Shown: one piece after another, positions 14,568 through 37,506 of the stretch
Layout: each line of letters opens with the position of its first letter
How positions within the stretch are numbered: position 1 is the stretch's first letter
From: Patescibacteria group bacterium
GTDB lineage: Bacteria > Patescibacteriota > Microgenomatia > UBA12405
Assembly (NCBI GenBank): GCA_018902845.1
Contig: JAHIPV010000017.1
Span: forward strand, 16,438 to 80,437
DNA: 64,000 bases
Reading direction: 5' to 3'
Program-made: the position numbers and the translations under genes
The notes under the pieces: generated by a model
Database searches by the model: none
Told to the model about the DNA's origin: nothing
What the model saw: only the letters and a program-made list of their open reading frames with translations

Positions 14568-14670
14568 GTCATTGCGAGGAGTCCGATTAATCGGAGGACG
14601 TGGCAATCCCGTAGGAAATGTAGAAAACATGATTAACAATCCAACAAAATCCCGCCACTGCGGGATGACA
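14568..14670. repeat. REP-like inverted pair upstream of tRNA-Val
   Basis: GTCATTGCGAGGAGTCCGATTAATCGGAGGACGTGGCAATCCC and inverted ATCCCGCCACTGCGGGATGACA. Confidence 0.75.
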
Positions 14671-14777: not shown

Positions 14778-16391
14778 TTACCAAACTTCTCTCAACAATT
14801 TTCCCATAATTACACCCTTACTAATCACAGTTTCGTAGTCCATTTCAAAATAATTTTCTTTCATTTCCTCAAGTAAAATTCCAGCCCACCTATAACTCAC
14901 CGCTCCAAATTGATCCGGTTGTTGGCCTTTTGCTTCTTTCAATCTAGTAATCCTGTCAATCAATGATTTTTCTATTTTCATCTGCCTTAACTTTTCATCA
15001 GCTTCTTCATAAGTCACAGTTCCTGTCAGCTCCGTATTAATCACATCTCCTAAATTTTCTACTAGTCTTGTACTAAGTACCATTTCTTTTTTTCTTTTTC
15101 TAAAAGAAAAAATAACATCCAACAAAGAATCACTATTATTTTCCTCTGCGAAAACAACACAACCTAACAGATCTTCGTCAAAGGGATATTGATTTAACAA
15201 TAAATTACAATCTTTTCTAATCAATTCATAAACAGGATCAGTCCAAAAACCCAAAAACATTTCTTTTTCCTCAACGTCAAAAAAATAAAATTTTGTCTCC
15301 CCAATCGAAATATTATCTTCAAAATATCTCCAACTATCTTCATTTCCGCTGTTTCCGGTTATCAAATGATATTCGCCTCCGCTACCAATAGGTATTACAT
15401 TTACACCACAGCCATTAATATCTCCTCTATTTTCTACTACCACAAAGCCTGTCTCATCTGACTCTACTGGTTCATCCCCACCACAAAAAACCTTCAGATA
15501 AGCAGGCGATCCAATATAAAATACCAAAGAATCAGATAAATCTAAAACATCTGAAACCAAAATATCATCAGCTTCAAAACCAAGCTCGTTTAATACATAA
15601 GCAGTACTATTATCAACAATCTCTCCATGATTAGAAAATACCGAATTACTCCCAAAACCATCAACAATCGCACTTTTTTGCAAAACAGTTCCGTCACCCA
15701 AAAGAGTATCTTCATACCTCAACGGCCTACCATCCACCCATCTTCCCAACAATTTGTCAAATGTACTTCTTTCCCCCAAAACAGCATATTCACTCGTATC
15801 AAATCCTATTCCACCAACAGTCAGCAGGGTATCGGAAATATCCAAAACACTTTCATTTTTATTCTTTACATAATTGTTGACAGTATACAAACCTTGATAG
15901 GGGATTAAGTCTGAACCATACTTAGCAAAATCAAAAACCGGTAAAATATCTTTTAAAGAAGGACTAAAATCCTGAACTAATTCAACAGAAGAAATGGGGT
16001 AATTTTTTTTATTTAACTGCAACAATACATTTAAAGCAATAGAACTTACACCCCCACCAAATTCCGCCCCACTCCACGCATTATATGCCTTAATAGCTCC
16101 AAGATGAGGGCTTCCCAAACTAATTACTTTATTTAATCTTGTATCATCTTTATTATCCTGTGCCCACATTCTGCCGACCATACCCCCCAAACTATGCCCC
16201 ACAATAGTAAAATTCTTCTCTACGGGTATTTTTTCATCTACAAATTCATCAAACCTTTCGACAATTTCGGAAACTGGTCTTCTCCAATCATAATTCCAAA
16301 CAAACAAATCAGCCGTCTCTCCAATACCCACAGTAGTCTCATCCTCATACCCCTTAGATTTTAAAGTGTTTATTAAACCATCGTAATTTTT
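14778..16391 (-). pseudogene. 3' half (537 codons) of an element-interrupted secreted lipase/acyltransferase-like alpha-beta hydrolase gene
   Basis: YDWRR, GHSLGG nucleophile elbow, GSPHLG, GDGTV; frame stays open 60 nt upstream of the ORF-track start up to the att core and is in frame with 48532-49383. Confidence 0.85.
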
Positions 16392-16416
16392 TACAAAAGG
16401 TGTACTCTAATACATC
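16387..16416. other. Left attachment junction (host half-site, AC crossover, element half-site)
   Basis: TTTTTT-AC-AA-AAGGTGTACTCTAATACATC; core TTACAAAA at 16391-16398. Confidence 0.82.
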
Positions 16417-16487: not shown

Positions 16488-16979
16488 ATGAGGTTAAGCA
16501 AAGCTTTTAGAAAAAGAATAGAATTAGGTTATATGGATTTGTATACAAAACTACAAACGAAAGAAACGAAAGTCAAACAAAATACTAAAAAAGTTGACAC
16601 TAAATACATAGTGGCAATAATAATAAGTTTAATAATTGGCGCTTCAGTCTTAGGCTATGGGTTTCTTAATTACCAATACAAAATGAATGCCTTGAATGAA
16701 AAGACAAGATCAGAGGAACAAGCAATTGAACAAAAGAAAGCAGAAGAAGAAGCAATAAAACAACAATATGCTGATTGTGCAAAAGAAGCAGTAAAAAGAG
16801 CACAAGACATTTTAAAAAGCAGGGTGGAACTAATGGAATCCACAGGTAAAACAAACAATACTGAATACAAAATGTGGAAAGAGGCAATAAAAAAGAATCT
16901 ATTTGACAAAGATGACAAAAATGAATATTACAACGATTGTCTCAAGAAATACGGTCTAGAACTTACCGTAGAAGAATAA
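16488..16979 (+). CDS. Hypothetical single-pass membrane protein with coiled coil
   Basis: One TM segment followed by a charged helical region; true start may be later. Confidence 0.55.
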   Translation: MRLSKAFRKRIELGYMDLYTKLQTKETKVKQNTKKVDTKYIVAIIISLIIGASVLGYGFLNYQYKMNALNEKTRSEEQAIEQKKAEEEAIKQQYADCAKEAVKRAQDILKSRVELMESTGKTNNTEYKMWKEAIKKNLFDKDDKNEYYNDCLKKYGLELTVEE

Positions 16980-17003: not shown

Positions 17004-17495
17004 ATGAAAAACACCGTTGCATATCACGAAGCGGGGCATGCTGTTGTCGAGTTTTTTCTTTTTGGAAAAGTAAAAAAGGTAAGCATAATACCAGGCAAGG
17101 AATTTCAAGGTCAAACAACTTCGTATTCGGTAAAAAACCTTGACCCTGATATCGACTTTTCACCCAGAACAAAAGATAATTTAGAGAAAATAATTGTCAT
17201 TTTTTATGCCGGGAATGAAGCCACAAAAAGGTTCAAGGGCCGATACGACTATATTGGATCACAATCTGACTATAAAAAAATTGGTAATATCTCTATCTAT
17301 CTTACAACTGGAGGCAAAGCTGAAGGTTATTTCCTGAAATACCTTAGAGAACGAGCAAAAGACTTGGTTAAACATCACTGGAGTTCCGTAGTCGCTCTTG
17401 CAGAACAGCTAATGGTGAAAAAAACAATGGAAACAAAAGAAATAGAAGATGCTATTAGATGTTCTTGGAAAGGAGGTAAACAAAATGACACATAA
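17004..17495 (+). CDS. Stand-alone zinc metallopeptidase domain (FtsH/M41-like)
   Basis: AYHEAGHAVV, AG.EA, GSQSD motifs; no AAA domain. Confidence 0.7.
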   Translation: MKNTVAYHEAGHAVVEFFLFGKVKKVSIIPGKEFQGQTTSYSVKNLDPDIDFSPRTKDNLEKIIVIFYAGNEATKRFKGRYDYIGSQSDYKKIGNISIYLTTGGKAEGYFLKYLRERAKDLVKHHWSSVVALAEQLMVKKTMETKEIEDAIRCSWKGGKQNDT

Positions 17496-17828: not shown

Positions 17829-19310
17829 TTATTTTTCAACAGATGAAATATTGGTTATCCAAAGGTCGTTTGAGTATATGTAGATTTTCTCCTTAAACCC
17901 TTCAAACTCTTTTACCAAACTAGACTTGTTGATTAAACTTTCTAAAGCCTGAGATTTTGGCAACTTCTGAGTACTTGATAAATAAACCACTACAAAAGAT
18001 GGCTTAATCTTTTCAATTTCTTCTTTTGAATTGTGAAGATCAAATTTATAATATGTTTGTTTTATTCCAACCCCAATACTTTCTTCCGTTAAAATAACGG
18101 CATCTTCAGGAACTAAACTATTTATATATTCATACGTTGCCAGTAAAGCATTGTCATTACGAATAAAAAACCTTTTGTACCAAGTAAAACTGTTAATTAG
18201 TAAGATTATGCCCAAAAATACATGAAGTCGCAATCGATTTTTCTTAGAATTTATCCAAGCAGAAAGGGCTACTGTTAAATATAGATACAAGGGTGTTAAT
18301 AGCATTATTAAGTATTGAGGTGCTCTAAGTGAAATTCCAGCATAAAATAATAATGTAGCCAATGACCAGCTTAATAACAGGGGTTGTTTGGGCTTGACTT
18401 TACCGACAATATGCTTAACCAAGTCTCTAACGACGACAAGTGTTCCTATTAACAAAGTTAATATTGTTGAAATATAAATCCAATATGTGTTAACCATGGC
18501 TTTTATTGCATCGGAAAAAGAATACTGTACCCCACGGGCACCAAATATTCCAAATGCCCTTTTGATTTGAACCATGTTTTGATCCAGATATATTTGACCC
18601 CAATTTAAATACATGACCAAAACATAAGTAACAATTGTCAACAGTCCAAACAGATATAAAGATATATGCTTTTTTGGATCTCGTTTTGTGAATATTAAAT
18701 TTAATAGAGGTACACCAAAATAATAGATCCCTGTATGTTTGTAAATTACCGTTATCGCTAACATAACACCCGACAAGATATACCAAATATTCTTTTTCTG
18801 AGATATTGCGTATGAGTAAAGAAACAACGAGATAATTCCAAGAAGTATCATCATGTTTTCCATCAAATTAAGACGATTGGTATAAATTAACCAGCCGTCA
18901 GAAGCCATTAGCAAGATTGAAATAATAGATACTTTTTTATTAGCTAGTTTTTTAAAAAAATAGTAGGTGAATAACAGTGCAATTGAGGATGCCCCGGCAG
19001 ATACAATTCTCGCACTAGTTACACCTTCAAAGCCCGTGTATTGAAATACTAGACTTTTTAATTTTGAATCAAACGGAGGATGATATAAATAAGGTCCATA
19101 GCCTTTTTTACCTTCTAATTTAATAGCGGGATAATTGTAATCAATATAGTTTGAAGATATTGAGGAATAGACAGGTTCGTCCCATTCATAACCTGGTTTT
19201 GAATCAATCTTGTACAATCTCAACATTAAGGAGATAACAACCACAAGATTTACCATCACCAGTTCAGATAGAAAATTATTATTTTTTAATAACGTTGTTA
19301 GTTTTTTCAT
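17829..19310 (-). CDS. GT-C fold membrane glycosyltransferase (ArnT/PMT-like)
   Basis: WDEPVY, YHPP, multiple TM helices, C-terminal extracellular domain. Confidence 0.8.
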   Translation of the reverse strand: MKKLTTLLKNNNFLSELVMVNLVVVISLMLRLYKIDSKPGYEWDEPVYSSISSNYIDYNYPAIKLEGKKGYGPYLYHPPFDSKLKSLVFQYTGFEGVTSARIVSAGASSIALLFTYYFFKKLANKKVSIISILLMASDGWLIYTNRLNLMENMMILLGIISLFLYSYAISQKKNIWYILSGVMLAITVIYKHTGIYYFGVPLLNLIFTKRDPKKHISLYLFGLLTIVTYVLVMYLNWGQIYLDQNMVQIKRAFGIFGARGVQYSFSDAIKAMVNTYWIYISTILTLLIGTLVVVRDLVKHIVGKVKPKQPLLLSWSLATLLFYAGISLRAPQYLIMLLTPLYLYLTVALSAWINSKKNRLRLHVFLGIILLINSFTWYKRFFIRNDNALLATYEYINSLVPEDAVILTEESIGVGIKQTYYKFDLHNSKEEIEKIKPSFVVVYLSSTQKLPKSQALESLINKSSLVKEFEGFKEKIYIYSNDLWITNISSVEK

Positions 19311-19314
19311 TGTT

Positions 19315-20388
19315 TTAATGTAGTTGAAAATAACGAAGTACTTGATCTGTTTTGTTTTTATTCATAAAATATCGCCATTTAAAAAAATGTATCGAAAAGT
19401 CATAGATCAAAGCACAAGTGATTGGTGGCAAAAAAAATGTGTAAAAGTCTTTTTCAATAAAAACATTTACCAACCCCGCGACAATCAGTCCAAACAAAAC
19501 AAAAGCTGGTATTGTTACAAACCCAATAAGTCCTTTGGTGAAAACGGTAAAAACAGATAGTAGCAAAATAAACAGACTTAACACCAATACTGCATGTACT
19601 TGGAAGTTTCTCCTTTTGGCAAATGGACAATCAGGATAATATTTAAGCATTAAAGCGGCACTCTGGCCACTACGCGATATTTGTCTGAAATACTGTTTCC
19701 ACCTTATTCGATGTTTGTGATATGAAACTACTTGATTAGTTACTAATATTTCAAAACCATTTTTAACTAACAACCATGAAATGACATAATCATCGTAAGT
19801 ACTGGCTTCTTTTGAAAAATTAAGCCCAAAATCCTTTTTTATTGAATTAAAAGCTTTTTTCGACAATAACAATGCGGTTGTTACTGGTAAACTTTCGGTA
19901 TTCCCAAAATTATTAATGTTTAATTTACCAAAAAAAGGAAAATCAGGATTGTTTTTGATTAAAGCCTTGTCTTGTAATTTTGAAATTAAGAGTCCCGAAT
20001 CTTCTTGCCAAGAAACCGCTGTTCCTGCTACAACTTCAACTTTGTATTGTTTTGAAAGTTTAATAGCAAGTTTAAGTGCGTCTTTTTTAAGTGTTGCTTT
20101 AGAATCAGTGAAAAATATATACCGACCTTTAGCTCTATTTGCTCCTACCCATCTTTTTAAATGAGCGTCTCTTGTGTAGCTTTTTCCTGGTTTAATCTCG
20201 ATATATTTAACTGTCCTGTTTTTTATGTAATCCCTTATTGCTGATCGAGTAGAATCGTTAGAAGATGCCACAATGATAATTTCAAATGGTCGACAAGACT
20301 GAGCCAACAAGGACTTGACCGTCTCCCTTACAGTAGCCTCTGATTCTCTGGCGGGAATGATAACAGAAATTTTATTATAAGTAGTCAT
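19315..20388 (-). CDS. Glycosyltransferase family 2 with C-terminal TM helices
   Basis: ISVIIPAR, FTDS, YDD, RQISRSG. Confidence 0.8.
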   Translation of the reverse strand: MTTYNKISVIIPARESEATVRETVKSLLAQSCRPFEIIIVASSNDSTRSAIRDYIKNRTVKYIEIKPGKSYTRDAHLKRWVGANRAKGRYIFFTDSKATLKKDALKLAIKLSKQYKVEVVAGTAVSWQEDSGLLISKLQDKALIKNNPDFPFFGKLNINNFGNTESLPVTTALLLSKKAFNSIKKDFGLNFSKEASTYDDYVISWLLVKNGFEILVTNQVVSYHKHRIRWKQYFRQISRSGQSAALMLKYYPDCPFAKRRNFQVHAVLVLSLFILLLSVFTVFTKGLIGFVTIPAFVLFGLIVAGLVNVFIEKDFYTFFLPPITCALIYDFSIHFFKWRYFMNKNKTDQVLRYFQLH

Positions 20389-20523: not shown

Positions 20524-20880
20524 TTAGCTATTAACAGTCAATTCAATTTTGTCTATCCTTTTCTCCAACACTGAAACCTCGAAAGACTTAAGAACCATAC
20601 CTGTTAGAAAACCAATCGTATTGGCTACTCTACAATCTAATCTTCCATCTCTCACCTCATTTATCGTATCAACCAACAATTTGGTTACATCTTCCACTTT
20701 CTCTATTTTTATTTGTGGTAGGGGAGAAGACACCACCACTCTTCGATTCTGACCACCTTTAACTTGAACACTCCGTTTTTCATTAGCAGTTATGTCTGGA
20801 TTGTGAAAATAACAATAATCACTATCTTTCATGGCATTAGCCTGACATCGTTTTCCTTTAATATTTTTTTTACATTTCAT
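20524..20880 (-). CDS. Small Cys/His zinc-binding protein (HGGxSTG-like, phage/satellite-associated)
   Basis: C..KGKRCQANA...YCYFH...KGG pattern. Confidence 0.5.
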   Translation of the reverse strand: MKCKKNIKGKRCQANAMKDSDYCYFHNPDITANEKRSVQVKGGQNRRVVVSSPLPQIKIEKVEDVTKLLVDTINEVRDGRLDCRVANTIGFLTGMVLKSFEVSVLEKRIDKIELTVNS

Positions 20881-20941
20881 AAGCTACTTATGGGGGTACT
20901 CATTATAATTTACAACAGAATCAGCATCACATTCATCCAGA

Positions 20942-21145
20942 CTACCCATACCACTTCAAAAGTGGCAGAATAACAAGGCCGTGCTTACTTATAACCTCAT
21001 CCACTTTGCGCTCCACCCCTTCTTTGTCTTTGTAATAATTAACCCCACCTCGCTTGTAAGCAATAATTACAGTATCTCTTAAATCGTTCGTTTGGGACAT
21101 TATCACTTTTTCTAATTTATTAATCCTTACCGCTAAACTTGTCAT
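20942..21145 (-). CDS. Hypothetical protein
   Basis: ATGA overlap with the helicase stop. Confidence 0.5.
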   Translation of the reverse strand: MTSLAVRINKLEKVIMSQTNDLRDTVIIAYKRGGVNYYKDKEGVERKVDEVISKHGLVILPLLKWYG

Positions 21146-22170
21146 TTCTTTTCTTTTGAATTAAATAATTGTTGGGCAAACTTTGTATTCACCTCTTCCT
21201 TTGTTTCTGTTCTAGACTGTGGTGTTATTTCTTTAAACAAAACTCTGTTTTCTAAAAATTCCATTCTCACATCTTCCGAAGGTGACTGATCCCTAAAATT
21301 ATCTAAAATTAGTTGAGTTTTAACCTTGATGTTTTGACTGCTCTTGTAATTTTGATACGGTCGCCAAACTATCAGTGTTCCAGAAAGTTGAGACTTCGCT
21401 TGACCACCTCCATAAATATCTTGTGCGGTGGGCTTTCTTATAACTCGGATTGAATCATCAAAAATCTTGTCCGGCTCGTTTTCTTTCACATATTCCTGAA
21501 CCATTTTAGGTAGCTCGCTAATAACCACTGTTTCTTTAACGTGATTTAAAATAAAAGAAATTATCGGCCTGTGTTTTGTAAAATTCACAATTTGAGTGAT
21601 ACATGACATTAATTTTCTCCAATCGCTCGCTTCATTTTGTGAGATATAGGTGGTTAAATTGTCATAGATTAAAACATTCACCATTTTCTCATCTGCTAAG
21701 ATTTTTGATATTTGCATAGCTTTGTCGAAATCCACCAAATTCTCTTTCATTAGTTTCTCGGCTGAAACTCTAAAGAGTTTATCCTTTGTTTGTTTCGCAA
21801 AATCTTGTCTCATTTTGATATTTTCCTCGGCTTCGCTAACGGACAATCCAAACCACAAGGCCGTCATTCTGGAAGAAAATTGAAACGTGTTTAACTCTGT
21901 ATCTATAAAAGCAACTTTCTTGCCTTTTCCAATCATGTTTATTGCGATCTTCATCATTAGAGAAGATTTGCCTGACTTTTGAATTCCGGCTACCATGTAA
22001 CAACCACCGGTTCGAAATCCTTTGAGTTGTAAATCAAGATTTGTAAATCCACTCATTATTCTTGGTGGGTTTAACTCCTCTTGCTCCAGTTCGAGAATTG
22101 AATCTAATAAATCTTTTTGAGGCTTTAGCTTCTCGACTGCACTTCTTGCCTCATTGTTTGAATCGAACAT
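21142..22170 (-). CDS. DnaB-like RecA-fold helicase/ATPase
   Basis: SGFTNLD, Walker A GIQKSGKS, IDTE, IYDNL, IYGGG. Confidence 0.8.
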   Translation of the reverse strand: MFDSNNEARSAVEKLKPQKDLLDSILELEQEELNPPRIMSGFTNLDLQLKGFRTGGCYMVAGIQKSGKSSLMMKIAINMIGKGKKVAFIDTELNTFQFSSRMTALWFGLSVSEAEENIKMRQDFAKQTKDKLFRVSAEKLMKENLVDFDKAMQISKILADEKMVNVLIYDNLTTYISQNEASDWRKLMSCITQIVNFTKHRPIISFILNHVKETVVISELPKMVQEYVKENEPDKIFDDSIRVIRKPTAQDIYGGGQAKSQLSGTLIVWRPYQNYKSSQNIKVKTQLILDNFRDQSPSEDVRMEFLENRVLFKEITPQSRTETKEEVNTKFAQQLFNSKEKK

Positions 22171-22799
22171 TATTTTGCTCCTAGTAAAAATTTAACAGCT
22201 TGAGGAAACGGCATTTTATCCCTAAGCATAAGAAAATCTATTGAATCACCATGTTGACCACAACCAAAGCAATGAAAATGATTATCTTGAAAGACCGTAA
22301 AGGACGGGGACTTTTCATCATGGAACGGACAACAAAAGACCAAATTGCCACCCATGCGCCTAGGGTTCTCGTTTATTAAATTTTCTATCCTCGATTCTCT
22401 CGCAATCTCTATGTCGGTTTCCGTTAAGTTGTCACAACGCCGTGACATTTGTTCCTGATACAAAGCTCGTCTATACCAACCTATTTTCTTTTTTAGTTCG
22501 ATTAGCCTCTTTCCTGGTGCATGGATTATGTATTCGTCATAAATCAACCTCCATATTTTGTCACTAACACAATTTTCTAAGACTTCATAACACGATTTGA
22601 TTCGAGCCTCTACATTCTCTTTTTCCAATTCGGCCTCGAGCAATAATTCGTTAACTCTTTTTTCCATCTCCGGAAAAGCTAACATCCATTCGTGAGGAGA
22701 TTGTGCCAAGTCTTGCAGAATCTTTTCTCTCCACCCTCTCCCTAATTCATCAATGTAGCCTAGATGTTCCGTCATTTGAGTCCTCCTAACAAATGCCAC
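22170..22799 (-). CDS. CHC2 zinc-finger protein (primase Zn-binding domain, no TOPRIM)
   Basis: CPFHDEKSPSF, HCFGCG, GDSIDF at the C terminus. Confidence 0.85.
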   Translation of the reverse strand: MAFVRRTQMTEHLGYIDELGRGWREKILQDLAQSPHEWMLAFPEMEKRVNELLLEAELEKENVEARIKSCYEVLENCVSDKIWRLIYDEYIIHAPGKRLIELKKKIGWYRRALYQEQMSRRCDNLTETDIEIARESRIENLINENPRRMGGNLVFCCPFHDEKSPSFTVFQDNHFHCFGCGQHGDSIDFLMLRDKMPFPQAVKFLLGAK

Positions 22800-23269
22800 A
22801 TCTTATCTTCTGAAATAATTTTAGACTTGAGGAGTGTTTTTTCTTCAAAAGCTGTTTTTAATTCCGTTGTCTTTATTGGTTTTAATGTATTGTCGGTAAC
22901 TCGTCCACACTTCGTACCTACTTCCGCACTTCTCACTTCCGCACTTCGGGAGTTAAGTGCATAGGAGTTCCGCACTTTAGGTGGTTGAGAAAGTAAAGGT
23001 GCATAGGAGTTCCGCACTTCGTAAATATTTACCATACCACCCTGTATAGTCTTTTCTCCAACTTTCTCAAATAACCCTGTTCTCTTAATAGCTGATACCA
23101 CTGTCTTGTCTGATACATGCGCCATCTTGGCAATTGTCCTGTGTGAGGCATAACACTGACCTAAACCATTATCTGAAAATGAAAACATAGCAAGCAAAAC
23201 AGCTATATCCTCTACCCTGCCGGTAAGAGTTAGTAGTCTGGGGTCAATTCGAATGATAAAACTATTCAT
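22772..23269 (-). CDS. Putative replication initiator with N-terminal winged HTH
   Basis: CYASHRTIAKMAHVSDKTV HTH typical of phage initiators; internal direct repeats; upstream of the Zn-finger and helicase genes. Confidence 0.6.
   Translation of the reverse strand: MNSFIIRIDPRLLTLTGRVEDIAVLLAMFSFSDNGLGQCYASHRTIAKMAHVSDKTVVSAIKRTGLFEKVGEKTIQGGMVNIYEVRNSYAPLLSQPPKVRNSYALNSRSAEVRSAEVGTKCGRVTDNTLKPIKTTELKTAFEEKTLLKSKIISEDKMWHLLGGLK
22904..23019. repeat. Iteron-like direct repeats (putative origin)
   Basis: TTCCGCACTT at 22922, 22937, 22968 and 23010; 21-bp GTGCATAGGAGTTCCGCACTT at 22957 and 22999. Confidence 0.75.
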
Positions 23270-23292
23270 TTTACATTTCTAATGACCCAGCG

Positions 23293-23529
23293 CTAGGTCA
23301 CCTGATAAATGCGACTTTTTAACTCGTTAATGGTCTCAATCAAGTCCCTTGCCTCTGGTCGGACACCATCACGATCCCAATATCGCTTCAATAATTCTTC
23401 TGCCGTTCCCTTATCGTCCTGAAATACAAAATTGACAAACTTGGCATTTTGTTTCTCAAGCCGAAGTAACGAAAATTTCATTACCTTTAAAACTACCGCA
23501 CTGTAAAAATCGTTCGTTATATATTCCAT
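23293..23529 (-). CDS. DUF5659-like small protein
   Basis: T.DFY.A..L and LKSRIY pattern recalled from mobile-element replication modules. Confidence 0.55.
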   Translation of the reverse strand: MEYITNDFYSAVVLKVMKFSLLRLEKQNAKFVNFVFQDDKGTAEELLKRYWDRDGVRPEARDLIETINELKSRIYQVT

Positions 23530-23637
23530 TTTCTTTTTTAATTAATAAATCTTTGTCATCAAGTAAATCACCAAAATACAGGCAAATTCTTTTGATAACA
23601 CTTTTCTTTAAAACCGGTGAAAGATTGGTAGTTATTA

Positions 23638-23835
23638 TCATTTCTTTCTGTCTTTCGGCCAAAATCTTGTAAGGTGATCCCAATATTTTTTAGACACTAA
23701 AATATCTCTCACCGAAGCAGGAACTTGAGAATCCAAGGTTAATTCTTCATCGGCACGCAAAAAAAGACCGGATTGTGTTAGTAATAGGTGAGCAATATCT
23801 TGAGTAAGGTTATTTGAAATTCTTCCTTTTATCAT
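23638..23835 (-). CDS. Hypothetical protein
   Basis: Co-oriented small ORF in the replication operon. Confidence 0.4.
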   Translation of the reverse strand: MIKGRISNNLTQDIAHLLLTQSGLFLRADEELTLDSQVPASVRDILVSKKYWDHLTRFWPKDRKK

Positions 23836-23890
23836 TAGATATAGTCTAAAGATGCGAGAAAGGTTAGTTAAACAGGAAATGCGTGGTTAG

Positions 23891-25006
23891 CTAATCATCA
23901 CGACGAGTCTGTTTTTCCTTGGAATGAAGGACGATAAATAAACAATGTTTGTAGTTCTTTCTCAGTCCGTATTTCTTAATACTCACATCGTATAACTCGA
24001 AGTTCGATCTTAATCTCCTACTTAATGATCCCAGGGTGGAACAGATCTGCCTTGAATCGATCCCTGTTTTTGCAAACAACTCTTTTTCCGAGATTCCTTC
24101 TTTTCCCGACTGGATAAGCATTTTAATAACTTCTTCCCTGTCAGTATTTTCGCCTTCGGCAAGTTGTTTACTTGACGACTTTTCAGGATAAAACGATAAA
24201 TTTTCTTCTCCGATGGTTAAGTTGTGATTTTTCATTTCTAGCTTGCGAGGCCAACAGGCAAGTTCGTATGCAGGTATTTTTGCGTATTCACAGGGAATTG
24301 TTTCTTTAACTTTTTGAGAGGAACGATAGTCAAATAAGTAGTCTGCGATTTTGTTTAGATAAATTAAACATTCCTGCTTCTTAAACACTTTTGCCCACCG
24401 TGTGAGACTAAGCAAGTGGTTTTCTCCTTTGCACATTGATACTATTTGGTTCACCATTCCCATAGCACCCCATACAGAATCATTGTGTTGTCTTTTTGTT
24501 TCTTCCTTATCATCAAGTAATTTAAGATAGTAATCATGAAGTTTTCCTGAAACTTGAGGTATTCTCTCCTGTATTCTTTGTATGTAATATGGAGCAACAA
24601 TTTTTTTATACTTTGTAAGAGCCAGTTCTTCGATAAAATGGATGAGGGCGTAATACAAATCCAACACATAAGACACTTTCTCCCTATCCATCCTTTTAAG
24701 TTGGTTTAGATGTTTTGCTGTTGTAGGAGATAGGTCTTTTGAAAGAATTTTGTGTTTTTTTATATCTGCCCAAACCCTCATACACTCATTAAACAAACTT
24801 GAAAGAGATTTTCTTTGCTCATCTTCGGCTTGATCTCTAAGAACTTCTAAGTTTAAAAGTTGAATATCAAATTCCTTTCCGTTCTGAATCCATTCCCCAA
24901 GTCGCCCAACTTCCTTTAAAAAAAGAAAAGAATCATCTACTGGAAGAAGATTCTTTATCCTAACACGTAGTTCTTTTACTAGTAAGTTTGATCTGTTCTT
25001 ATCCAT
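23891..25006 (-). CDS. Hypothetical protein with possible C-terminal winged HTH (candidate regulator)
   Basis: GISEKELFAKTGIDSRQICSTLGSLSRRL helix-turn-helix-like segment; divergent from xis-int. Confidence 0.5.
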   Translation of the reverse strand: MDKNRSNLLVKELRVRIKNLLPVDDSFLFLKEVGRLGEWIQNGKEFDIQLLNLEVLRDQAEDEQRKSLSSLFNECMRVWADIKKHKILSKDLSPTTAKHLNQLKRMDREKVSYVLDLYYALIHFIEELALTKYKKIVAPYYIQRIQERIPQVSGKLHDYYLKLLDDKEETKRQHNDSVWGAMGMVNQIVSMCKGENHLLSLTRWAKVFKKQECLIYLNKIADYLFDYRSSQKVKETIPCEYAKIPAYELACWPRKLEMKNHNLTIGEENLSFYPEKSSSKQLAEGENTDREEVIKMLIQSGKEGISEKELFAKTGIDSRQICSTLGSLSRRLRSNFELYDVSIKKYGLRKNYKHCLFIVLHSKEKQTRRDD

Positions 25007-25045
25007 CTTCCATTTTATATTTTATATGCTAACCTATACTAACAT

Positions 25046-25291
25046 ATGCAAAACTCAAATAAAATAACATTCTCTAACCCAACCTTCACTCCAACCTCTC
25101 CAAGAACGTGGCCACCCTTATTAACACTCACTCAAGCTTCTCTAATACTCAATATAAGTGAACACACTATCAGAAGATGGGTTAATAAAGAAAAGAGGCT
25201 AGAAGCCACCAGGGTAAGCACAAGAGGAGATATGAGATTCAAAAAAGAGGACATTCTAAAAATAATCCAAGAAGGCATTAAAAAAATATGA
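25046..25291 (+). CDS. Excisionase-like HTH_17 protein (candidate directionality factor)
   Basis: LLTLTQASLILNISEHTIRRW...GDMRFKKEDI; directly upstream of the recombinase. Confidence 0.75.
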   Translation: MQNSNKITFSNPTFTPTSPRTWPPLLTLTQASLILNISEHTIRRWVNKEKRLEATRVSTRGDMRFKKEDILKIIQEGIKKI

Positions 25292-25300
25292 AAATGAAAA

Positions 25301-26863
25301 ATGAGAGTAGCAAGCTACAGTAGGGTTTCAACATCATCACAAGCACAAAAAGACAAGGTTTCAATTGAGATGCAGGTAGATTGGGCCAAGAAAATCTGTC
25401 AAGAAAAAAATTGGCAATATGTAAAGAAATACATCGAACCAGGAGTGATAGGGGAGACTGAATTTGAAGAAAGACAAGCAGGAGGCCAATTGCTTAAAGA
25501 CGCCAAACAAAAATTTTTTGACTTAGTACTTTTCTATCACTCATCTCGTCTTGCCAGAGAACCAGATATTGGACTTCGAACAATCAGACTTTTAGGGCAA
25601 AACAAAATACAGGTCTATTTTGGAAATTCACCAACCGAACCGGTAGCACCAGAAAAATATGTTTACGGCAACAATGTTTCATCAATGTTTATGAACGCCT
25701 TCTCCCTTGTTACTGATCTAAAAGATAACTATGAAAGGGCAGAAAAATTTCATGGGGCATTGCGTAAGATAGCCTCAAGAGGAATATTCCCTATCAGGGT
25801 TCCATTCGGATACAAAAGAATCTTTGTAGTCAAGAATGGCAAACCCACACGAAAAATTGTCACCGTTCCCGAAGACGCAATTATTATAAAAATGATTTTT
25901 GACCTCTACGATATAGAGAAGAAATCGATCAGATCTATCGCCCATCACCTCAACACTGTTGATATCAAATCACCTAGCGGGAAAACAGGCCTAGAAGCTT
26001 GGACACACCGAGCTGTAAGATATATTCTCAAAAACCCTACCTACACAGGCCTTATCCGATGGGGAAGAATGAAAGGCAGAAAATACCAACAAGAAAGAAG
26101 CATATCTGGTGCTGTAAAAAGAATTCACGCCAACAAAGATGAAATAATTTTAGCCAAAGGCACACATGAAGTTCTAATTAATAAAAAACAATTTAATAGG
26201 GTTCAAGCAAGACTTCAATTAAGAGGAAAAATTCCTGGAAGATCAATCGGTTCCCCAGGATTATTATCAGGTTTGGTATTTTGTGGCCGATGTAAAAAAA
26301 GAGCTTATTTTGTCACCAAAAGAGACAAGAACTCCTTGTATACCAAATACGTTTGCCGAAGTTATGTTTACTTCAAAACTTGTAGGGGATACATCATCTC
26401 TGCCCCAAAACTCGATAAAATTGTCATCAACGAAATAGCAAAACTAACCAAAGGAGCAGAAACACCAAACAAATACATCAATGCTAGTGTAAAAAATAAA
26501 ATAAAAAATCTAAAAGACACCCAAAGTAAACTAAAAAACTCACTTGAATCAAACATCAAAAAACAAAACCGAATATTCAAAGCTTACGAAAATGAAGTCA
26601 TCAACCTTACAGAATTTTCAGAGGAAAAAAAACAACTAGATAAAGACAACCTCCGATTAACCATGGAAGTTGAAAACATAGACAAAGAGATACAAGAATT
26701 TGATGATAAAAAGGACAAAAGCAAAAATTTTAAAAAACTAATCAAAAATTTCCCAAAAACATTTGCAAAAATATCACCAGAAAAACAAAAGTCTTTAATC
26801 CATCAACTTATCGAAAAAATAACTGTCAACGGGGAATCAGTCCACATCGAATATCGGGTTTAA
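25301..26863 (+). CDS. Large serine recombinase (integrase)
   Basis: YSRVST catalytic Ser, SRLAR, PFGY, LKNPTYTG, LSGLVFCGRC..YVC zinc ribbon, coiled coil. Confidence 0.93.
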   Translation: MRVASYSRVSTSSQAQKDKVSIEMQVDWAKKICQEKNWQYVKKYIEPGVIGETEFEERQAGGQLLKDAKQKFFDLVLFYHSSRLAREPDIGLRTIRLLGQNKIQVYFGNSPTEPVAPEKYVYGNNVSSMFMNAFSLVTDLKDNYERAEKFHGALRKIASRGIFPIRVPFGYKRIFVVKNGKPTRKIVTVPEDAIIIKMIFDLYDIEKKSIRSIAHHLNTVDIKSPSGKTGLEAWTHRAVRYILKNPTYTGLIRWGRMKGRKYQQERSISGAVKRIHANKDEIILAKGTHEVLINKKQFNRVQARLQLRGKIPGRSIGSPGLLSGLVFCGRCKKRAYFVTKRDKNSLYTKYVCRSYVYFKTCRGYIISAPKLDKIVINEIAKLTKGAETPNKYINASVKNKIKNLKDTQSKLKNSLESNIKKQNRIFKAYENEVINLTEFSEEKKQLDKDNLRLTMEVENIDKEIQEFDDKKDKSKNFKKLIKNFPKTFAKISPEKQKSLIHQLIEKITVNGESVHIEYRV

Positions 26864-26994
26864 AATAAAGACTAAAACCATTCCATTCTCTAAACATAAT
26901 TTGTTCAATACATAAAAATAGTAATATGCTTTTTTTCAGCCATAAGCATCTCCATTGTCATTTTCATTCTTCCCAATTTTACTAAGTATTGTTT

Positions 26995-27507
26995 TTATAT
27001 TCCTTTTACTGAAGCATAGCTCACCATTTGGACAATCAAAGAAGTATCGTTGACTAATTGCCCTTTTTCTTGATAAAGATTTTTTATTTTGTAACCCATG
27101 TTTATTGCCACTAGTCTGGTCATATAATCGGGGGACCAATAATAACAAGTAACCTGATTGCATTTTTCTTTTCTCACAATCATTTTCACCTTAAATCCAG
27201 CTGGCCATTCAATTATTCTTCTTATTTGTTGATTAGTTAATACAGCATCAAATTTAATCATCTTCAGCTTGACCGCTCCAATCAGTTCTTCATGTTTTTT
27301 GGCAATTGACTTATCAGGCATAATTTTTGCCAGCTCCTCTTGGAATCCTTTTGTTCTGGTTACTAATTTAGGCTTTCGGGATGTTTGTTGTGAATAGCCC
27401 GATTCTTTTAAAATTTTACCCATCGGGACAATTTTCTTACCCCCCGAATTTCGGATATTTTCGGATAACTTCTGGACCGCTATTTTTTGACGTATTGTAG
27501 AGGACAT
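26995..27507 (-). CDS. Terminase small subunit-like HTH protein
   Basis: TIRQK..., SGYSQQTSRKP N-terminal pattern resembling TerS. Confidence 0.45.
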   Translation of the reverse strand: MSSTIRQKIAVQKLSENIRNSGGKKIVPMGKILKESGYSQQTSRKPKLVTRTKGFQEELAKIMPDKSIAKKHEELIGAVKLKMIKFDAVLTNQQIRRIIEWPAGFKVKMIVRKEKCNQVTCYYWSPDYMTRLVAINMGYKIKNLYQEKGQLVNDTSLIVQMVSYASVKGI

Positions 27508-27619: not shown

Positions 27620-29194
27620 ATGTCAGAAGAACAGAAACGATTACTTGAAAAACAACTATGGGGAGTGGCAAATATTCTCAGAGGAAAAATGAATGCCGAT
27701 GAATACAAGAACTACATCCTCGGCTTTATTTTTTATAAATACCTCTCGGAAAGACTTGAAAAATATGTCAACGGAAAACTCCTCTCCCGTGAGAATTACA
27801 CATTTGAAGAAATAAAAGAGGACACCAAACAAGGTAAGGCGATTGTAGAAGAAGTAAAAAAAGCCAGCATCAATCATCTTGGCTTTTTTCTTAAACCCAG
27901 CCAGCTGTTCTCATATCTCGTCAAAAAAGGAAACGGTGAGATCAAAAATCAAGAGAACTTCATTTTAGAAGACCTAAAAAATATTCTTAACACTGTTGAA
28001 CAGACTTCGATGGGTACTTCCAGCGAAGACGACTTCAAGGGTTTGTTTGATGATGTAGATTTAACTTCATCCAAATTGGGAAAAGGCGAGAAAAAGAAAA
28101 ATGAAGTCATTGTCGAAGTTCTTACGGTTCTAAATGGTATTGACTTTAAGCTCGAAGATTCTAAAAGTGACCTTCTGGGTGATGCATATGAATATCTAAT
28201 CGGTAAGTTTGCTGCAGGTGCGGGTAAAAAGGGTGGCGAGTTTTATACTCCTGCCCAGGTTTCTAGACTTCTTGCCAAAATAGTTACATTGGGCAAGAAA
28301 AAACTTCGTTCTGTATACGACCCTACGTGTGGTTCGGGTTCTCTTCTCTTGCGTCTTAAAGACTATATTGTCTCCGATTATTATGGACAAGAACTTAACC
28401 CTACAACATACAACCTTGCTCGTATGAATATGATTCTGCATGATATACACTTTGACCGTTTCTCAATTCGTCACGGTGACACTCTAACAGATGATATGCA
28501 CTTAGACCTTCAAGCAGAAGCCATTGTAGCCAATCCTCCCTTTGGTGCCAAGTGGAAAAGCACTGATGATCCAGCACTAGCAAATGATGAAAGATTCACG
28601 CAATATGGTAGATTAGCTCCTAAAGGTAAGGCTGATTATGCCTTCGTGACTCATATGCTTCACCACCTGTCAGATAACGGCACCATGGCGATTGTATTGC
28701 CTCACGGAGTGTTATTTAGATATGGTGCAGAAGGTGAAATACGCAAATACATCATTGAAAAACAGAACTATTTAGATGCTGTTATTGGTCTTCCTTCAAA
28801 CCTTTTCTATGGTGCGGGTATTTCAGCAATAGTCTTGGTGTTTAAGAAGTGTCGCCGAGAGGATAAGGACATTTTGTTTATAGACGCTTCAAAAGAATTT
28901 GAAAAACAAAAAAATCAAAACTATCTTACAGATGAAAATATCACTAAAATATTTAACACTTACAAGGAGCGTAAAGTAAGTGATAAATACTCACATAAGG
29001 CTTCGCTAGAGGAGATTAAGGAAAATGATTACAACTTGAACATTCCTCGATATGTAGACACTTTTGAGGAAGAAAAACCTATTGATCTTAAAGAGGTGGC
29101 AATAAAGCTTAAAAAGCTAAACAAGGAGGAGCTGGGGCTTCAAAAGAAAATAGCTCGATTTTGTGATGAATTAAAAATAGCTAAACCCTTTTGA
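27620..29194 (+). CDS. hsdM: Type I R-M methyltransferase
   Basis: GEFYTP, DPTCGSG, NPPF, LPHGVLF, YNLNIPRY. Confidence 0.95.
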   Translation: MSEEQKRLLEKQLWGVANILRGKMNADEYKNYILGFIFYKYLSERLEKYVNGKLLSRENYTFEEIKEDTKQGKAIVEEVKKASINHLGFFLKPSQLFSYLVKKGNGEIKNQENFILEDLKNILNTVEQTSMGTSSEDDFKGLFDDVDLTSSKLGKGEKKKNEVIVEVLTVLNGIDFKLEDSKSDLLGDAYEYLIGKFAAGAGKKGGEFYTPAQVSRLLAKIVTLGKKKLRSVYDPTCGSGSLLLRLKDYIVSDYYGQELNPTTYNLARMNMILHDIHFDRFSIRHGDTLTDDMHLDLQAEAIVANPPFGAKWKSTDDPALANDERFTQYGRLAPKGKADYAFVTHMLHHLSDNGTMAIVLPHGVLFRYGAEGEIRKYIIEKQNYLDAVIGLPSNLFYGAGISAIVLVFKKCRREDKDILFIDASKEFEKQKNQNYLTDENITKIFNTYKERKVSDKYSHKASLEEIKENDYNLNIPRYVDTFEEEKPIDLKEVAIKLKKLNKEELGLQKKIARFCDELKIAKPF

Positions 29195-30444
29195 GCATGA
29201 GTACTCCAAGCACACAGGCAACGCCAATGATTCCACGACTTCGTTTTTCTGAATTTTCTAACGAATGGAAAGAGAAAAAACTAGGAGATGTTTTTAATAG
29301 AATTACAGATAAAAATGTGACTAATAATAAAAATGTTTTAACAATCTCGGCTCAACGAGGATTAATTAATCAAAAAGATTTTTTCACCAAATCTGTATCA
29401 GCAAAAAATATTACTGGTTATTTTTTTCTTAAAAAAAACGATTTTGCTTACAACAGAAGCCATTCTAAAGGTTACCCTATAGGGGTAATTAAGAGACTTG
29501 TCAATTATGATCGTGGCGTAGTTTCAACTTTGTATATTTGTTTCAGATTGGATAACGCAAATTATTCCGAAGTTTTTTTTGAAAAATATTTTGAGAGTAG
29601 ACATGTTAATCGTGAAATAAGTAAAATTGCTCAAGAAGGTGCGAGAAATCATGGTTTACTAAACATGAGCGTTATAGATTTTTTCAATGATGTTGCAATC
29701 AAATTTCCAAGACAATTAGAACAGCAAAAAATTACCAACTTTCTAGGGCCAGTAGATGCCTGGATTAACAACTTACAATTTCAGAAAGAATATCTTGAAG
29801 ACTATAAAAAAGGCATTATACAAAAGATCTTTAGCCGGGAGATTAGGTTCAAAGACGATAATGGAAAAGATTTCCCAGGGTGGGAAGATAGGAATTTTTG
29901 CAAAATACTTACAGAACACAAAATGAAGAGCCGTGGAAAGGAAGAAGTGTTTTCTGTTTCGGTACATAAGGGGTTGATCAATCAGATTAAGCATCTTGGT
30001 AGAAGTTACTCCGCCAAGAATACTGGGCATTACAATTTGGTAAAACCACATGATGTGGTATATACAAAGAGCCCAACGGGGAGATTTCCTTTTGGAATAA
30101 TTAAACAGAGTATACTCAGGAAAAACGTGATAGTGTCTCCGCTATATGGTGTGTTTACCCCCGAGACGTCAGGGCTTGGATATATGTTAAATGCGTATTT
30201 CGAATCCAATATAAATACACATAATTATCTAGCTCCGATCGTACAGAAAGGTGCAAAAAACACAATGAACATCACTAACAAAACTTTTTTGTCAAGAAGT
30301 TTAGTACTACCTGTTTCAAAAAAAGAACAACAAAAAATTGCTGATTTCCTAATTTCTATTGACACGCTGATCGAATCAAAAAACAGTCAAGTTACAAAAG
30401 CTAAGAGCTGGAAAAAAGGCTTGATGCAACAAATGTTTGTATAA
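29191..30444 (+). CDS. hsdS: Type I R-M specificity subunit
   Basis: PRLRFSEF, two TRDs with EQQKI conserved regions, KKGLMQQMF. Confidence 0.92.
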
Positions 30445-30446
30445 AT

Positions 30447-33248
30447 ATGACACACCAATCCGAACAACAACTAGAAACTGCCTTAATCAAGCAATTACAT
30501 GAGCTTGGTTTCTCTAATGTGGACATAAAAGATCATAATTCTTTGAAAAATAACTTACGATCTCAACTAGAAAAGTTTAACCAAACATCTTTTTCTGACT
30601 CTGAGTTCGCCAGAATAATGAACCACCTTAACAGAGGGGATAGATTTCAAAAAGCCAAGACTCTACGAGACCGATATGCACTTTCTCGTGATGATGAGAG
30701 CAAAATTTTTATCCGTTTCTTTAACATGGATCAATGGTGTAAGAATGAATATCAAGTAACCCACCAGATCACCCAAGAAGGCTCTTACAAGAACCGTTAT
30801 GATGTTACGTTGCTAATAAACGGATTACCCCTTGTTCATATTGAACTCAAACGTCGCGGGATGGAGATGAAGGAAGCTTTTAACCAAATCCAGCGATACC
30901 ATAAACACTCATTTACAGGAACTATATTTGAATACGTACAAATATTTGTTATTTCAAACGGGGTCAATACTAAGTATTTTTCAAACAACCCAAAACAATC
31001 ATTTGAACAAACATTTTTCTGGACAGATGAAAAAAACAAGAAGATTACTAAGCTTGATGCATTTGCAAATGCATTTCTAGAGAAATGCTTCGTGTCAAAG
31101 ATGATTGCCGAGTACACCGTACTTGCTGAAGCAAAGAAAATCCCCATGGTGCTTCGACCATACCAGTACTACGCGGTCAGAGCTATAGAAAAAAGAGTTC
31201 AAGAGTCAGATAAAAACGGCTACATCTGGCACACTACCGGATCAGGCAAAACACTAACTTCATTCAAGGCCAGTCAGATATTGTCGCAAATGCCAGAAAT
31301 CAAAAAGGTTTTGTTTGTGGTTGACCGCAAAGACTTGGACATTCAAACCACCAAAGAGTTTAACTCTTTTTCAGACGGTTCAGTCGATGGAACCAATAAC
31401 ACTCGCAACCTTGTGGCACAATTAGAAGACAAAAATCGAAAACTTATCGTTACCACTATTCAAAAATTAGACATTGCTGTTAGCAGGGAAAGTTATCTAA
31501 AAAAACTCTTGCATTTAGAAAACGAAAAAGTGGTAATTATCTTTGATGAGTGTCATCGTAGTCAATTTGGTGTAACCCATGGAAGAATTAAAAAGTTTTT
31601 TGGTAAAGCTCAATTGTTTGGATTTACCGGAACCCCCATATTCGCTGACAATAATGTTGGTGGAGTAACCACGGCAGATGTTTTTGGTTCTCCTCCACTA
31701 CATAAATACATAATCACTAACGCCATTTCTGATAATAATGTACTCGGATTTTCCGTTGAGTATGTGGGTAAGTATAAGCAGAAATCACCGGACACACTTG
31801 ATGCAGATATCTTTGCCGACACTATGGTCGAGGGAATTAACACAAGAGAGGTTCTAGAAGATGATGGTCGTCTTGAAAAAATTTCCGATTACATCTTAGC
31901 AGATTGGAAGCGTAAGACTAAACGGGGTAAATTCAATGCCTTATTTGCCACACCAAACATTGAAGTGCTAAAAAAATACTACACTTTACTGAAGGACAAA
32001 AAACCAGACGACTTCTCAATGGCAACCATTTTTACTTATCATGCAAATGAGGATGACAGCTCAGACATGCTCGACGTAGACGTATTTGCGGGAGAGGGAA
32101 CTACTGGAAATAAGCATTCACGAGATTTTTTGGAAGACTGCATTGAAGACTACAACAAAAAGTTTTCAACCAACTACTCAACAGACCGTTTTTATGACTA
32201 TTACCGAGACCTACAAAAGCGAATCAAAAATAAGGAAGTGGATCTAGTACTTGTAGTAAATATGTTTTTAACAGGTTTTGACAGTCCTAGACTTAACACT
32301 CTTTATGTTGACAAAAATCTACGATATCACGGTTTAGTTCAAGCATATTCTCGTACCAATAGACTTCTTAATTCTGATAAGCCTCATGGAAACATTATTT
32401 CATTTAGAAATCTAAAAGACGCCACAGACACCGCACTTGCCTTGTTTGGAGATGAAAATGCCAAAGAAGTTGTTTTCAAGAAACCTTATGAGGAACAGAA
32501 AAATAATTTCAAAACTAAGTTAACAGAACTAAAGGAAAAAACACCTACACTTAAATCAATAGACGAATTGCACAGCGAAGAAGAAAGAGCCGGCTTTGTT
32601 AGAACATTTAGAGATCTGTTACGCATCAAATCATCCTTAGAAACTTTCGCTGAATTTACATTTGACGACTTAGGAATATCTGAACAAGAGTTTTATGACT
32701 ATCAAAGCAAATACTTAGACATTTACGATGAACGCAAAAAAGACGATAGTGGCGTTGAATCGATTCTTGATCAAATCGATTTTGAATTAGAACTCACAGT
32801 TAGAGATATCATAAACTTTGACTATATTATTCTCCTGATCGCTGGTCTAAAAAACATTAAATCCGACACAGTAAGAAATAAGAAAACAGAAGAAATACTT
32901 CGAATATTTGATCAGGATGTACAGTTACGTAAAAAGAAAGATTTAATCAAGAAATTTATCGAAGAGAATCTTCCAAAAATTGGTAAATCAGACGATGTTG
33001 AAAAAGCGTTTAGCGAGTTCTGGAAAAGTGAGAGGTCGAGGGTGTTGAGAGAAGTTGCTGAAACAGAAAGTATACCAGTAGAAAAAATGGAAAACTTGAT
33101 TGGTGACTATGTCTACTCGCAAAAAACACCCAAAGATCAAGAAATCGCCGATTTACTCCCCCAACAACCAAAAATACTGGAGTTTGGGAGTGTTGTTAGC
33201 AAAATAAAGAATGCTATCAAAAATATCGTGGACGTATTTGAGTGGTAA
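30447..33248 (+). CDS. hsdR: Type I R-M restriction subunit
   Basis: [46 protein letters not shown]. Confidence 0.95.
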
Positions 33249-36249: not shown

Positions 36250-36283
36250 TACTTGGTTATTTTTACCTTTTAAAAAAACAAAC

Positions 36284-37225: not shown

Positions 37226-37503
37226 ATAAACAATTTAACATTAATGCCATAGACTGGTGGATAATTTTTGGTTTTTGTGCTCAGTTTGTTTTTTTTCTAC
37301 GTTTTGTGGTGCAATGGTGGGCTTCTGAAAAAGCTAAAAAGACAGTTATACCTAAACTTTTTTGGTATTTAAGTATGATGGGTACTTTAATGATTTTGAT
37401 TTATTCAATAAAAAGAAAAGACATTGTTTTTATCGTTGCTTCATGTCTAAACATTCTTCTTTATTTGAGAAATTTAATTATTGCCAAAAAACACAAAAAT
37501 TAA
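37222..37503 (+). CDS. LAB_N-type small 3-TM membrane protein
   Basis: F.LRFVVQW..SE..K..VIP..FW..S motif. Confidence 0.8.
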   Translation: MNKQFNINAIDWWIIFGFCAQFVFFLRFVVQWWASEKAKKTVIPKLFWYLSMMGTLMILIYSIKRKDIVFIVASCLNILLYLRNLIIAKKHKN

Positions 37504-37506
37504 AGT

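Follow-up and report, generated by a model that had tools for sequence, protein, structure and literature searches.

A 32.1-kb integrative island with its own replicon and an orphan small-terminase-like gene in a patescibacterial genome: a candidate phage satellite

The stretch of DNA analysed here, hereafter called the window, comprises 64,000 nucleotides (nt) of contig JAHIPV010000017.1 from a Patescibacteria group bacterium (assembly GCA_018902845.1) and contains an integrative island of 32,140 bp at positions 16399-48538. The island has its own replicon and an orphan gene resembling the small subunit of phage terminases, and it lacks virion genes. We consider it somewhat likely that it is a satellite packaged in the capsids of a helper phage. 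The host genome, of 1.06 Mb in 24 contigs and 93.5% complete, has been detected in groundwater metagenomes.

The borders of the island could be placed with an ambiguity of 8 nt. The 8-nt crossover core TTACAAAA is present at both insertion ends, as the left attachment site (attL) at 16391-16398 and, identical in sequence, as the right one (attR) at 48531-48538. A contig of 1104 nt from run X12, a groundwater sample of a separate study, matched window positions 15400-16398 with 3 differences and passed directly from 16398 into 48531-48627, its two parts overlapping by exactly the 8-nt core. This contig is the empty site in a strain that is 99.7% identical over 999 nt. Since it joins the two flanks at the core, the element is a discrete unit of 32,140 bp. 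A short contig from run X13 showed a second uninterrupted site, more diverged, and contigs from X9 and X10 spanned the occupied left junction. The element is discrete and is present or absent among near-identical strains.

The island interrupts a gene for a secreted surface hydrolase of roughly 800 amino acids (aa), both parts of which lie on the minus strand. The C-terminal part, a lipase-like alpha/beta-hydrolase (14778-16398), covered residues 286-824 of a homologue of 824 aa found in L002, the closest relative; the N-terminal part (48539-49383), with a signal peptide and a 3-keto-disaccharide-hydrolase-like domain (weak Pfam match to 3keto-disac_hyd), aligned to residues 3-289, so that both halves abut within this one homologue. 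A tblastx comparison paired L002 127-933 with window 49332-48526 and L002 922-2571 with window 16397-14748. The minus-strand open reading frame (ORF) 14778-16331 encodes the alpha/beta-hydrolase, with Pfam matches that begin inside the profiles, and the minus-strand ORF 48508-49383 stops where the hydrolase domain would start. A homologue of the C-terminal part was present in 28 of the 40 relatives searched, with an open frame of about 780-850 aa where it is whole. Gene order beside the site is kept on the left side in L002 and on both sides in L003 and L004.

The integration module consists of two plus-strand genes. A large serine recombinase of 520 aa (25301-26863) showed all three domains by which such enzymes are defined, Resolvase (E 5.5e-16), Recombinase (3.5e-21) and Zn_ribbon_recom (5.4e-11), each above the Pfam cut-off, together with the N-terminal motif YSRVSTSSQ and a match to phrog_95 at 1.8e-80. 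Its nearest NCBIfam models, CcrC, CcrB and XisF, all scored far below their cut-offs. The gene starts 9 nt downstream of that for an 81-aa helix-turn-helix (HTH) protein of the excisionase/MerR type (25046-25291; Pfam HTH_17, 1.2e-9), which passed the cut-offs of TIGR01764 'excise' (29.4 vs 28.8 bits) and of MerR_1 (25.8 vs 21.6 bits). Occupied and empty sites having both been observed around the 8-nt core, the locus provides a natural att pair for a new large serine recombinase. Between the recombinase gene and the left and right cores there are 8.9 and 21.7 kb, respectively, in agreement with the distances of about 9 and 22 kb in the initial annotation, whose named core genes were likewise recovered at their coordinates by the ORF list and by scans against Pfam, PHROGs and NCBIfam. 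Ungapped dyad symmetry at the rebuilt attP amounted to 12/20, a value reached by 166 of 500 shuffles and thus not above chance. Elsewhere in the genome, tblastn with the recombinase of the island returned six further serine-recombinase-like matches of 21-26% identity, on contigs C4, C8 (two places), C9, C2 and C3; judged from these sequences, the host may hold several serine-recombinase elements of such a kind.

The orphan terminase-like gene (26995-27507, minus strand) encodes a protein of 170 aa and reads as a small-terminase homologue of an unnamed family, on evidence that is mainly positional. We examined 34 loci with homologues, of which 5 were viral, 5 came from genomes, 21 from metagenomes and 3 from 401 genomes sampled within the phylum. 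The gene was found just upstream of a large terminase (TerL) in 15 loci, forming 6 distinct groups (L011, L012, L028, L013, L015 and L020), at a distance within about 1.3 kb in five of the six. L013 is the sole member of its group in which the terminase itself was recognized; L014, L036 and L037 were assigned to the group by their near-identical terminase-like gene. The ORFs of the terminase-like protein and of TerL overlap in L011 and L012, and a portal-size ORF and a phrog_1357 major head gene come next in L011, L012 and L037. A second arrangement, seen in 9 loci (7 groups), has a large serine recombinase 0.3-3 kb away and no terminase family in the available stretch. Neither gene stood beside the homologue in 3 loci, and the 7 remaining contigs, shorter than 2.7 kb, were too short to judge. 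Over its whole length, the 170-aa protein matched its counterparts in the phages L011 (43% identity over 163 aa), L012 and L028, and the TerL proteins of these three phages are 62-67% identical to each other. Two peculiarities of the phage loci may be recorded here: the small-terminase-like gene and TerL are separated in L028 by an ORF of 403 aa (1851-3062), and the large terminase of L013 (1814-3326) was read as two ORFs of 216 and 286 aa, matching N- and C-terminal parts of TerL, which could reflect a frameshift, an intron or a split gene.

Structural comparison pointed in the same direction for the N-terminal domain of the protein. An AlphaFold model (pLDDT 73.7) was compared with 48,161 chains by VIA-align, and the top chain was 2cmp_A, the DNA-binding domain of the SF6 (G1P) small terminase, with 55 of 56 residues aligned, a root-mean-square deviation of 1.9 and a Z score of 7.0, which is middling on the scale of the comparison tool. 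The second chain, the phage protein 2ao9_A, reached 5.8. Foldseek found nothing in the PDB at E<=0.001, the SPP1-like small terminase 3zqq_C ranking fifth with E 0.066; against BFVD, 11 of the top 50 rows, all weak and none at E<=0.001, were named small terminase. The family is large, with 1630 cluster representatives at E<=1e-3 and, at the stricter threshold of E<=1e-10, 548, and the protein's own cluster in the Atlas is 69% viral, with viral neighbours; phrog_51, 'terminase small subunit', was matched by 2 of 148 family members. Sequence and profile searches of the PDB yielded only uL23-like noise (E about 0.1), and tblastn of the protein against 50,697 GenBank phage records gave no match. 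Prediction of a complex with an L011-type TerL scored 0.11 against a mark of 0.32, which is evidence neither way. In a tree of small-terminase-like proteins, the three phage-context rows fell outside those from islands or of unassigned context, with a weak support of 83/18 from which no origin can be claimed.

These data bear on a first alternative, an integrative island of the genomic or defence type. Its spread would depend only on the serine recombinase and on transfer without phages, for instance by natural transformation, vesicles or co-transfer, and the small-terminase-like protein would be a DNA-binding regulator or an anti-phage packaging-interference factor rather than a packaging device. 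We regard this as unlikely, though less so than the other alternatives. In its favour, the likeness to small terminases is confined to the DNA-binding domain of the 170-aa protein. The homology to the TerL-adjacent proteins of L011, L012 and L028, however, covers the full length and not the HTH alone, and the gene has been kept intact in every family island examined.

The terminase-like gene near a serine recombinase, with no large terminase, recurred in seven other low-GC loci. The initial annotation had asked for conservation of the core elsewhere, and the core did recur: replication genes accompany the terminase-like gene and the recombinase in four of the seven, and defence genes flank the terminase-like gene in at least five. 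L017 carries hsdRSM, then, divergently, the terminase-like gene, a 229-aa gene, a DUF5659 gene, a 78-aa gene, an HTH_36 initiator and the recombinase, followed by a truncated YkuD gene and host genes. In L018 the order is GmrSD and a type ISP enzyme, the terminase-like gene, an ATPase 43% identical to that of the window, a CHC2 protein, a 166-aa gene, the recombinase and secA; L019, labelled Ca. Saccharibacteria, has a KAP NTPase, the terminase-like gene, DUF5659, Phage_rep_O and the recombinase. Simpler arrangements were seen in L032 (hsdS, DUF6602 and hsdR-SLFN, then the terminase-like gene, then the recombinase) and in L035 (a RelA/SpoT-domain protein, the terminase-like gene, HNH and the recombinase). 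L048, from the class of the present genome, reads HTH_3, terminase-like gene, 263-aa, 74-aa, DUF5659-like and 113-aa genes, recombinase, a 188-aa ORF, murT and gatD, and an hsdM-like tblastn match was found at its contig end; type I restriction-modification (R-M) genes are present in L017 and L032. The cargo beside the terminase-like gene is thus swapped between loci, mostly for defence genes. Because at most one gene separates the recombinase from the host flank in L017, L018 and L048, the buried integrase, together with the 4-kb left arm, is peculiar to this copy and not a family trait. The secA gene beside the recombinase of L018 (15223-17993) was read as an 805-aa ORF and an overlapping 132-aa ORF with a SEC-C motif, and the att site of L018 may lie at, or may have altered, the 3' end of secA.

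The recurrence of this pair also speaks to the possibility of a decayed prophage, which would have kept integration, replication, the small terminase and morons after deletion of the large terminase and structural genes. Such an origin would account for a recombinase with xis, an O-like initiator, a small-terminase-like gene and Gtr-like genes, which are typical prophage content, and for the fact that related phages share the small-terminase family. We nevertheless hold it to be improbable, given that the seven other, independent loci pair the terminase-like gene with a serine recombinase and none of them has TerL, portal or capsid genes, that all core ORFs of the island are intact, and that the empty site in the near-identical strain described above points to recent gain or loss of the whole unit.

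The replication operon lies on the minus strand, divergent from the HTH_17-recombinase pair. Its putative initiator, a 165-aa protein (22772-23269), was identified by Pfam and PHROGs as HTH_36 and replication-O-like. Iteron-like direct repeats inside the gene (22904-23030; a 13-nt unit in four copies and a 21-nt unit in two) form a predicted origin, and the gene at the same position in L018 carries a comparable internal repeat set. The origin of phage lambda likewise lies inside gene O. Next in the operon come a 209-aa CHC2 zinc-finger protein (22170-22799; Pfam Zn_ribbon_DnaG 4.5e-21), with a C-terminal finger at residues 133-206, and a 342-aa ATPase of the DnaB_C/RecA fold (21142-22170; Pfam DnaB_C 8.2e-10; phrog_239, phrog_19 and phrog_243) with the Walker A motif GIQKSGKS. 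No TOPRIM or primase catalytic domain was detected in the CHC2 protein. The initiator with its iterons, the CHC2 protein and the ATPase may correspond to the primase-replicase module of phage-inducible chromosomal islands (PICIs). The operon ends at 20524-21145 with a 67-aa protein and a 118-aa protein (20524-20880) whose Cys/His pattern was recognized by eye; neither matched a family. An own replicon with iterons would be costly unless an excised form is amplified, which is a further argument against a defence island that moves by a non-phage route.

The head of this leftward operon is less well defined. A 78-aa protein (23293-23529, minus strand) that had been called DUF5659-like scored 23.0 bits here, just below the cut-off of 23.6; related genes exceeded it in L017 (34.4 bits), L019 (26.5) and L050 (25.2), that of L048 staying below (22.6). 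In L017 and L019 the gene is placed between the terminase-like gene and either the initiator or the recombinase, and in L050 beside the CHC2 gene. Two proteins without family matches, of 65 and 371 aa, occupy 23638-25006 on the minus strand and possibly include a regulator. The larger (23891-25006) is the protein that the initial annotation had described as winged-helix; the gene is there, and for this label the Atlas gave only a weak structural lead, at residues 279-360. It had a single homologue among 5.8 billion proteins and showed no similarity to the 229-aa protein encoded after the terminase-like gene in L017. When the ATPase, the 371-aa protein and the recombinase were each used singly to scan viral contigs, no relatives were found.

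As first suggested from the ORF list, virion and conjugation genes were not detected in the island. Its 35 ORFs of at least 55 aa were all scanned against Pfam (E<=0.01), PHROGs (E<=0.001) and PADLOC, and 25 of them against NCBIfam. No match to a capsid, portal, large terminase, tail, relaxase, coupling-protein, VirB4 or other type IV secretion system (T4SS) family was obtained among the 35, and in these hidden Markov model (HMM) scans none of the hypothetical ORFs turned out to be structural or conjugative. The relaxase and/or T4SS/coupling protein that define integrative and conjugative or integrative mobilisable elements (ICEs, IMEs) were thus not found, nor were the TerL, portal and major capsid that define a prophage.

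A further alternative is a complete temperate phage or phage-plasmid with structural genes too diverged to be recognized. In its favour, many ORFs had no confident Pfam match (15 of 35 had none at E<=0.01 and a further nine matched only below the curated cut-off), and 32 kb is a phage-like size. Three observations make this explanation very improbable. Phages that share the small terminase have a readily recognized TerL and major head genes (phrog_2, phrog_1357). The six proteins encoded at 40.6-47.2 kb, which gave no virion-family matches, have hydrophobic or transmembrane segments, generally absent from virion proteins. Finally, about 15 kb of the element consists of R-M and glycosyltransferase genes. 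A last alternative sees in the island an integrative mobilisable element that a conjugative system would transfer in trans. Serine-recombinase IMEs do exist in Firmicutes (PMC5704250). The 35 ORFs (25 for NCBIfam), however, held no relaxase, coupling protein or T4SS family, and a phage packaging gene would serve no role in such an element, which leaves this explanation with hardly any probability.

The island carries cargo on both sides of its core. The left arm begins with a 163-aa membrane coiled-coil protein (16488-16979) and a 163-aa M41-type peptidase (17004-17495), both on the plus strand. This FtsH-like domain, at the left end of the island, stands alone, with the HEAGH motif kept and without AAA or membrane parts. 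Glycosyltransferases of the PMT_2 (GT-C) and GT2 types, identified by Pfam, follow on the minus strand (17829-20388). To the right of the core, on the plus strand, lies a complete type I R-M system with hsdM, hsdS and hsdR together (27620-33248; identified by Pfam and by PADLOC as MTase_I, Specificity_I and REase_I), then a glycosylation set (33997-40691) made up of a double GT2, a GtrB-like GT2, a LAB_N membrane protein and two PMT_2 proteins. The Gtr-like cluster may alter surface receptors. Six secreted or membrane proteins without assigned function (40645-47155, plus strand) come next, each with a hydrophobic or transmembrane segment that is mostly N-terminal; among their genes lies that of an HTH_3 regulator (41984-42277, minus strand), the exception without such a segment. 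The right end (47185-47990, plus strand) is formed by a 150-aa HEPN-domain protein (Pfam HEPN 2.1e-5; phrog_5737) and a 119-aa partner without matches, whose ORFs overlap by 7 nt; the pair is possibly a toxin-antitoxin or abortive-infection module.

Such rich cargo, with type I R-M, the HEPN pair and the glycosylation and envelope genes, speaks for a defence island moving by other means than phage particles. The same explanation gains from the fact that no helper phage was found in the genome and from the finding that cargo-carrying tycheposons were not found in phage fractions (10.1101/2020.12.28.424599).

Beyond the cores, the DNA is chromosomal. The left flank holds the core genes ftsW, murG, ftsA, ftsZ, ileS, L21, L27, parB and a signal peptidase gene, and the right flank holds GT2, Wzy, dnaE, L19 and lgt. 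A 30-nt stretch of the host flank occurs twice with 80% identity, in the intergenic region after L21 (12539-12568) and in that before tRNA-Val (14599-14628), and may be a short dispersed repeat.

If the island is a satellite, we would propose the following course of events. The trigger would be a phage akin to the L011/L012/L028 lineage, either infecting the cell or being induced. The HTH_17 protein and the recombinase would then excise the island at the TTACAAAA core. In the manner of lambda O, the initiator would attach to the iterons that lie within the initiator gene and, jointly with the CHC2 protein and the DnaB-like ATPase, amplify the circle. A pac site on the island would be recognized by the small-terminase-like protein, which would bring in the large terminase of the helper, and island DNA would be packaged by the headful. 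At 32 kb, the island is near the size of related phage contigs of the L011/L012/L028 type (34.5 and 43.5 kb, possibly incomplete), and remodelling of the capsid would not be needed. A fit into an unmodified head is our proposed explanation for why the island has no capsid-remodelling genes. The host would be repaid for carriage by the cargo, namely the type I R-M system, the HEPN pair and the Gtr-like glycosylation cluster.

Several observations weigh against a satellite, among them the middling Z score reported above. The 170-aa protein matched no family in Pfam, PHROGs or NCBIfam, and Pfam terminase models were matched by 0 of 148 family members. Residues 77-140 form an alpha/beta unit with generic matches only (Z at most 5.1), and this C-terminal domain fits no known small-terminase oligomerization fold; solved small terminases have helical oligomerization domains. 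The gene is rare, occurring in 4 of 401 sampled genomes of the phylum when the present one is counted. Searches for a helper were negative: tblastn of the whole, 93.5%-complete assembly with TerL, portal and head proteins of related phages returned nothing, phrog_2 gave only noise (E 0.007) and PF05065 nothing. The attP junction or circular form was not seen in assembled Logan contigs, which drop rare forms; runs X14 and X9 gave no contig on the right junction, an absence without weight. The evidence consists of contigs, and excision as a circle, replication, helper dependence, induction and packaging are steps that we infer. In size, too, the island departs from PICIs, for which the median is 9.5 kb and only 17 elements fall in the range of 20-28 kb (PMC10085698), against 32.1 kb here. 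The proposal of the initial annotation, a PICI-like satellite, stood as to its parts, and none of the refuting conditions named there was borne out: the hypothetical ORFs are not virion or conjugation proteins by HMM, the core recurs elsewhere, and the gene at 26995 resembles a small terminase in its position in phages and in the fold of its N-terminal DNA-binding domain. Support for the proposal is partial, the buried integrase not being a trait of the family and no helper phage having been found in the genome.

More tentatively, as a reading that is plausible and falls short of probable, the island may be the largest member of an undescribed satellite family of ultra-small bacteria of the Candidate Phyla Radiation (CPR)/Patescibacteria type. 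Members of this family would integrate by a serine recombinase, have a small terminase only, redirect the TerL of a defined phage lineage, ride in unmodified capsids and ferry swappable defence and surface-glycan cargo between cells without conjugation. Most members seen would have their own replication module, and the present one would be of full phage-genome size. A search of the literature, subscription journals excluded, found no paper on phage satellites of Patescibacteria. Little gene-exchange machinery has been recognized in ultra-small groundwater bacteria. If the proposal is true, a capsid-riding satellite would be a concrete route by which restriction systems and surface-glycan genes move between such cells, and phage satellites would reach a part of the bacterial tree, and a size class, that are new for them.

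Described PICIs use tyrosine integrases, whereas the integrase here is a large serine recombinase and internal. The PICI survey of de Sousa et al. 2023 treats serine and tyrosine integrases as exchangeable (PMC10085698). The island shares with PICIs, including the Staphylococcus aureus pathogenicity islands (SaPIs), an integrase with a small MerR/excisionase-type HTH protein beside it, an own replication module, a small terminase gene (terS) without a large terminase, the absence of other phage structural genes and accessory or defence genes after terS, where PICIs commonly carry accessory genes (PMC10085698). It thus shows the integrase and the small terminase by which PICIs are recognized in the survey, the terS call having been made without a terminase HMM match, and at 32,140 bp exceeds the size of about 10-15 kb given there (PMC10085698). 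The HTH_17 protein may stand for the regulation module of PICIs, which is homologous to alpA, merR or stl, or may only direct excision. The element has PICI parts and yet is not classed as a PICI. It further differs from PICIs in having no capsid-morphogenesis gene, in a small terminase of an unnamed family and in a groundwater host with a tiny genome.

The PICI-like elements (PLEs) of Vibrio cholerae are satellites that integrate by a large serine recombinase, as the island would. They measure about 18 kb and are specific to phage ICP1. Among the reference satellites considered by Eppley et al. 2022 (PMC9618062), PLEs are the only ones with a large serine recombinase. With cassettes of the SCCmec type (staphylococcal cassette chromosome, SCC), the link is that CcrC and CcrB are the nearest NCBIfam models of our recombinase, far below cut-off, and membership is not claimed. 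SCC elements have their ccr genes mid-element with cargo on both sides. They have no terS and a different replication content.

[quoted passage not shown] As these sources, in their accessible parts, describe them, some have terS and R-M or Abi cargo, and they lack capsid-remodelling genes, as does the island; elements that combine a serine recombinase with terS and R-M cargo are known among VEIMEs and tycheposons (PMC9618062; 10.1101/2020.12.28.424599). The terS of VEIMEs is closest to that of co-occurring phages (PMC9618062), as seen here. All three kinds are much smaller, PICIs and tycheposons measuring 10-20 kb (10.1101/2020.12.28.424599), and they reside in marine Proteobacteria and Cyanobacteria. 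Tycheposons were seen to have terS on one type of element and large cargo on another (10.1101/2020.12.28.424599), whereas the present island carries both on one.

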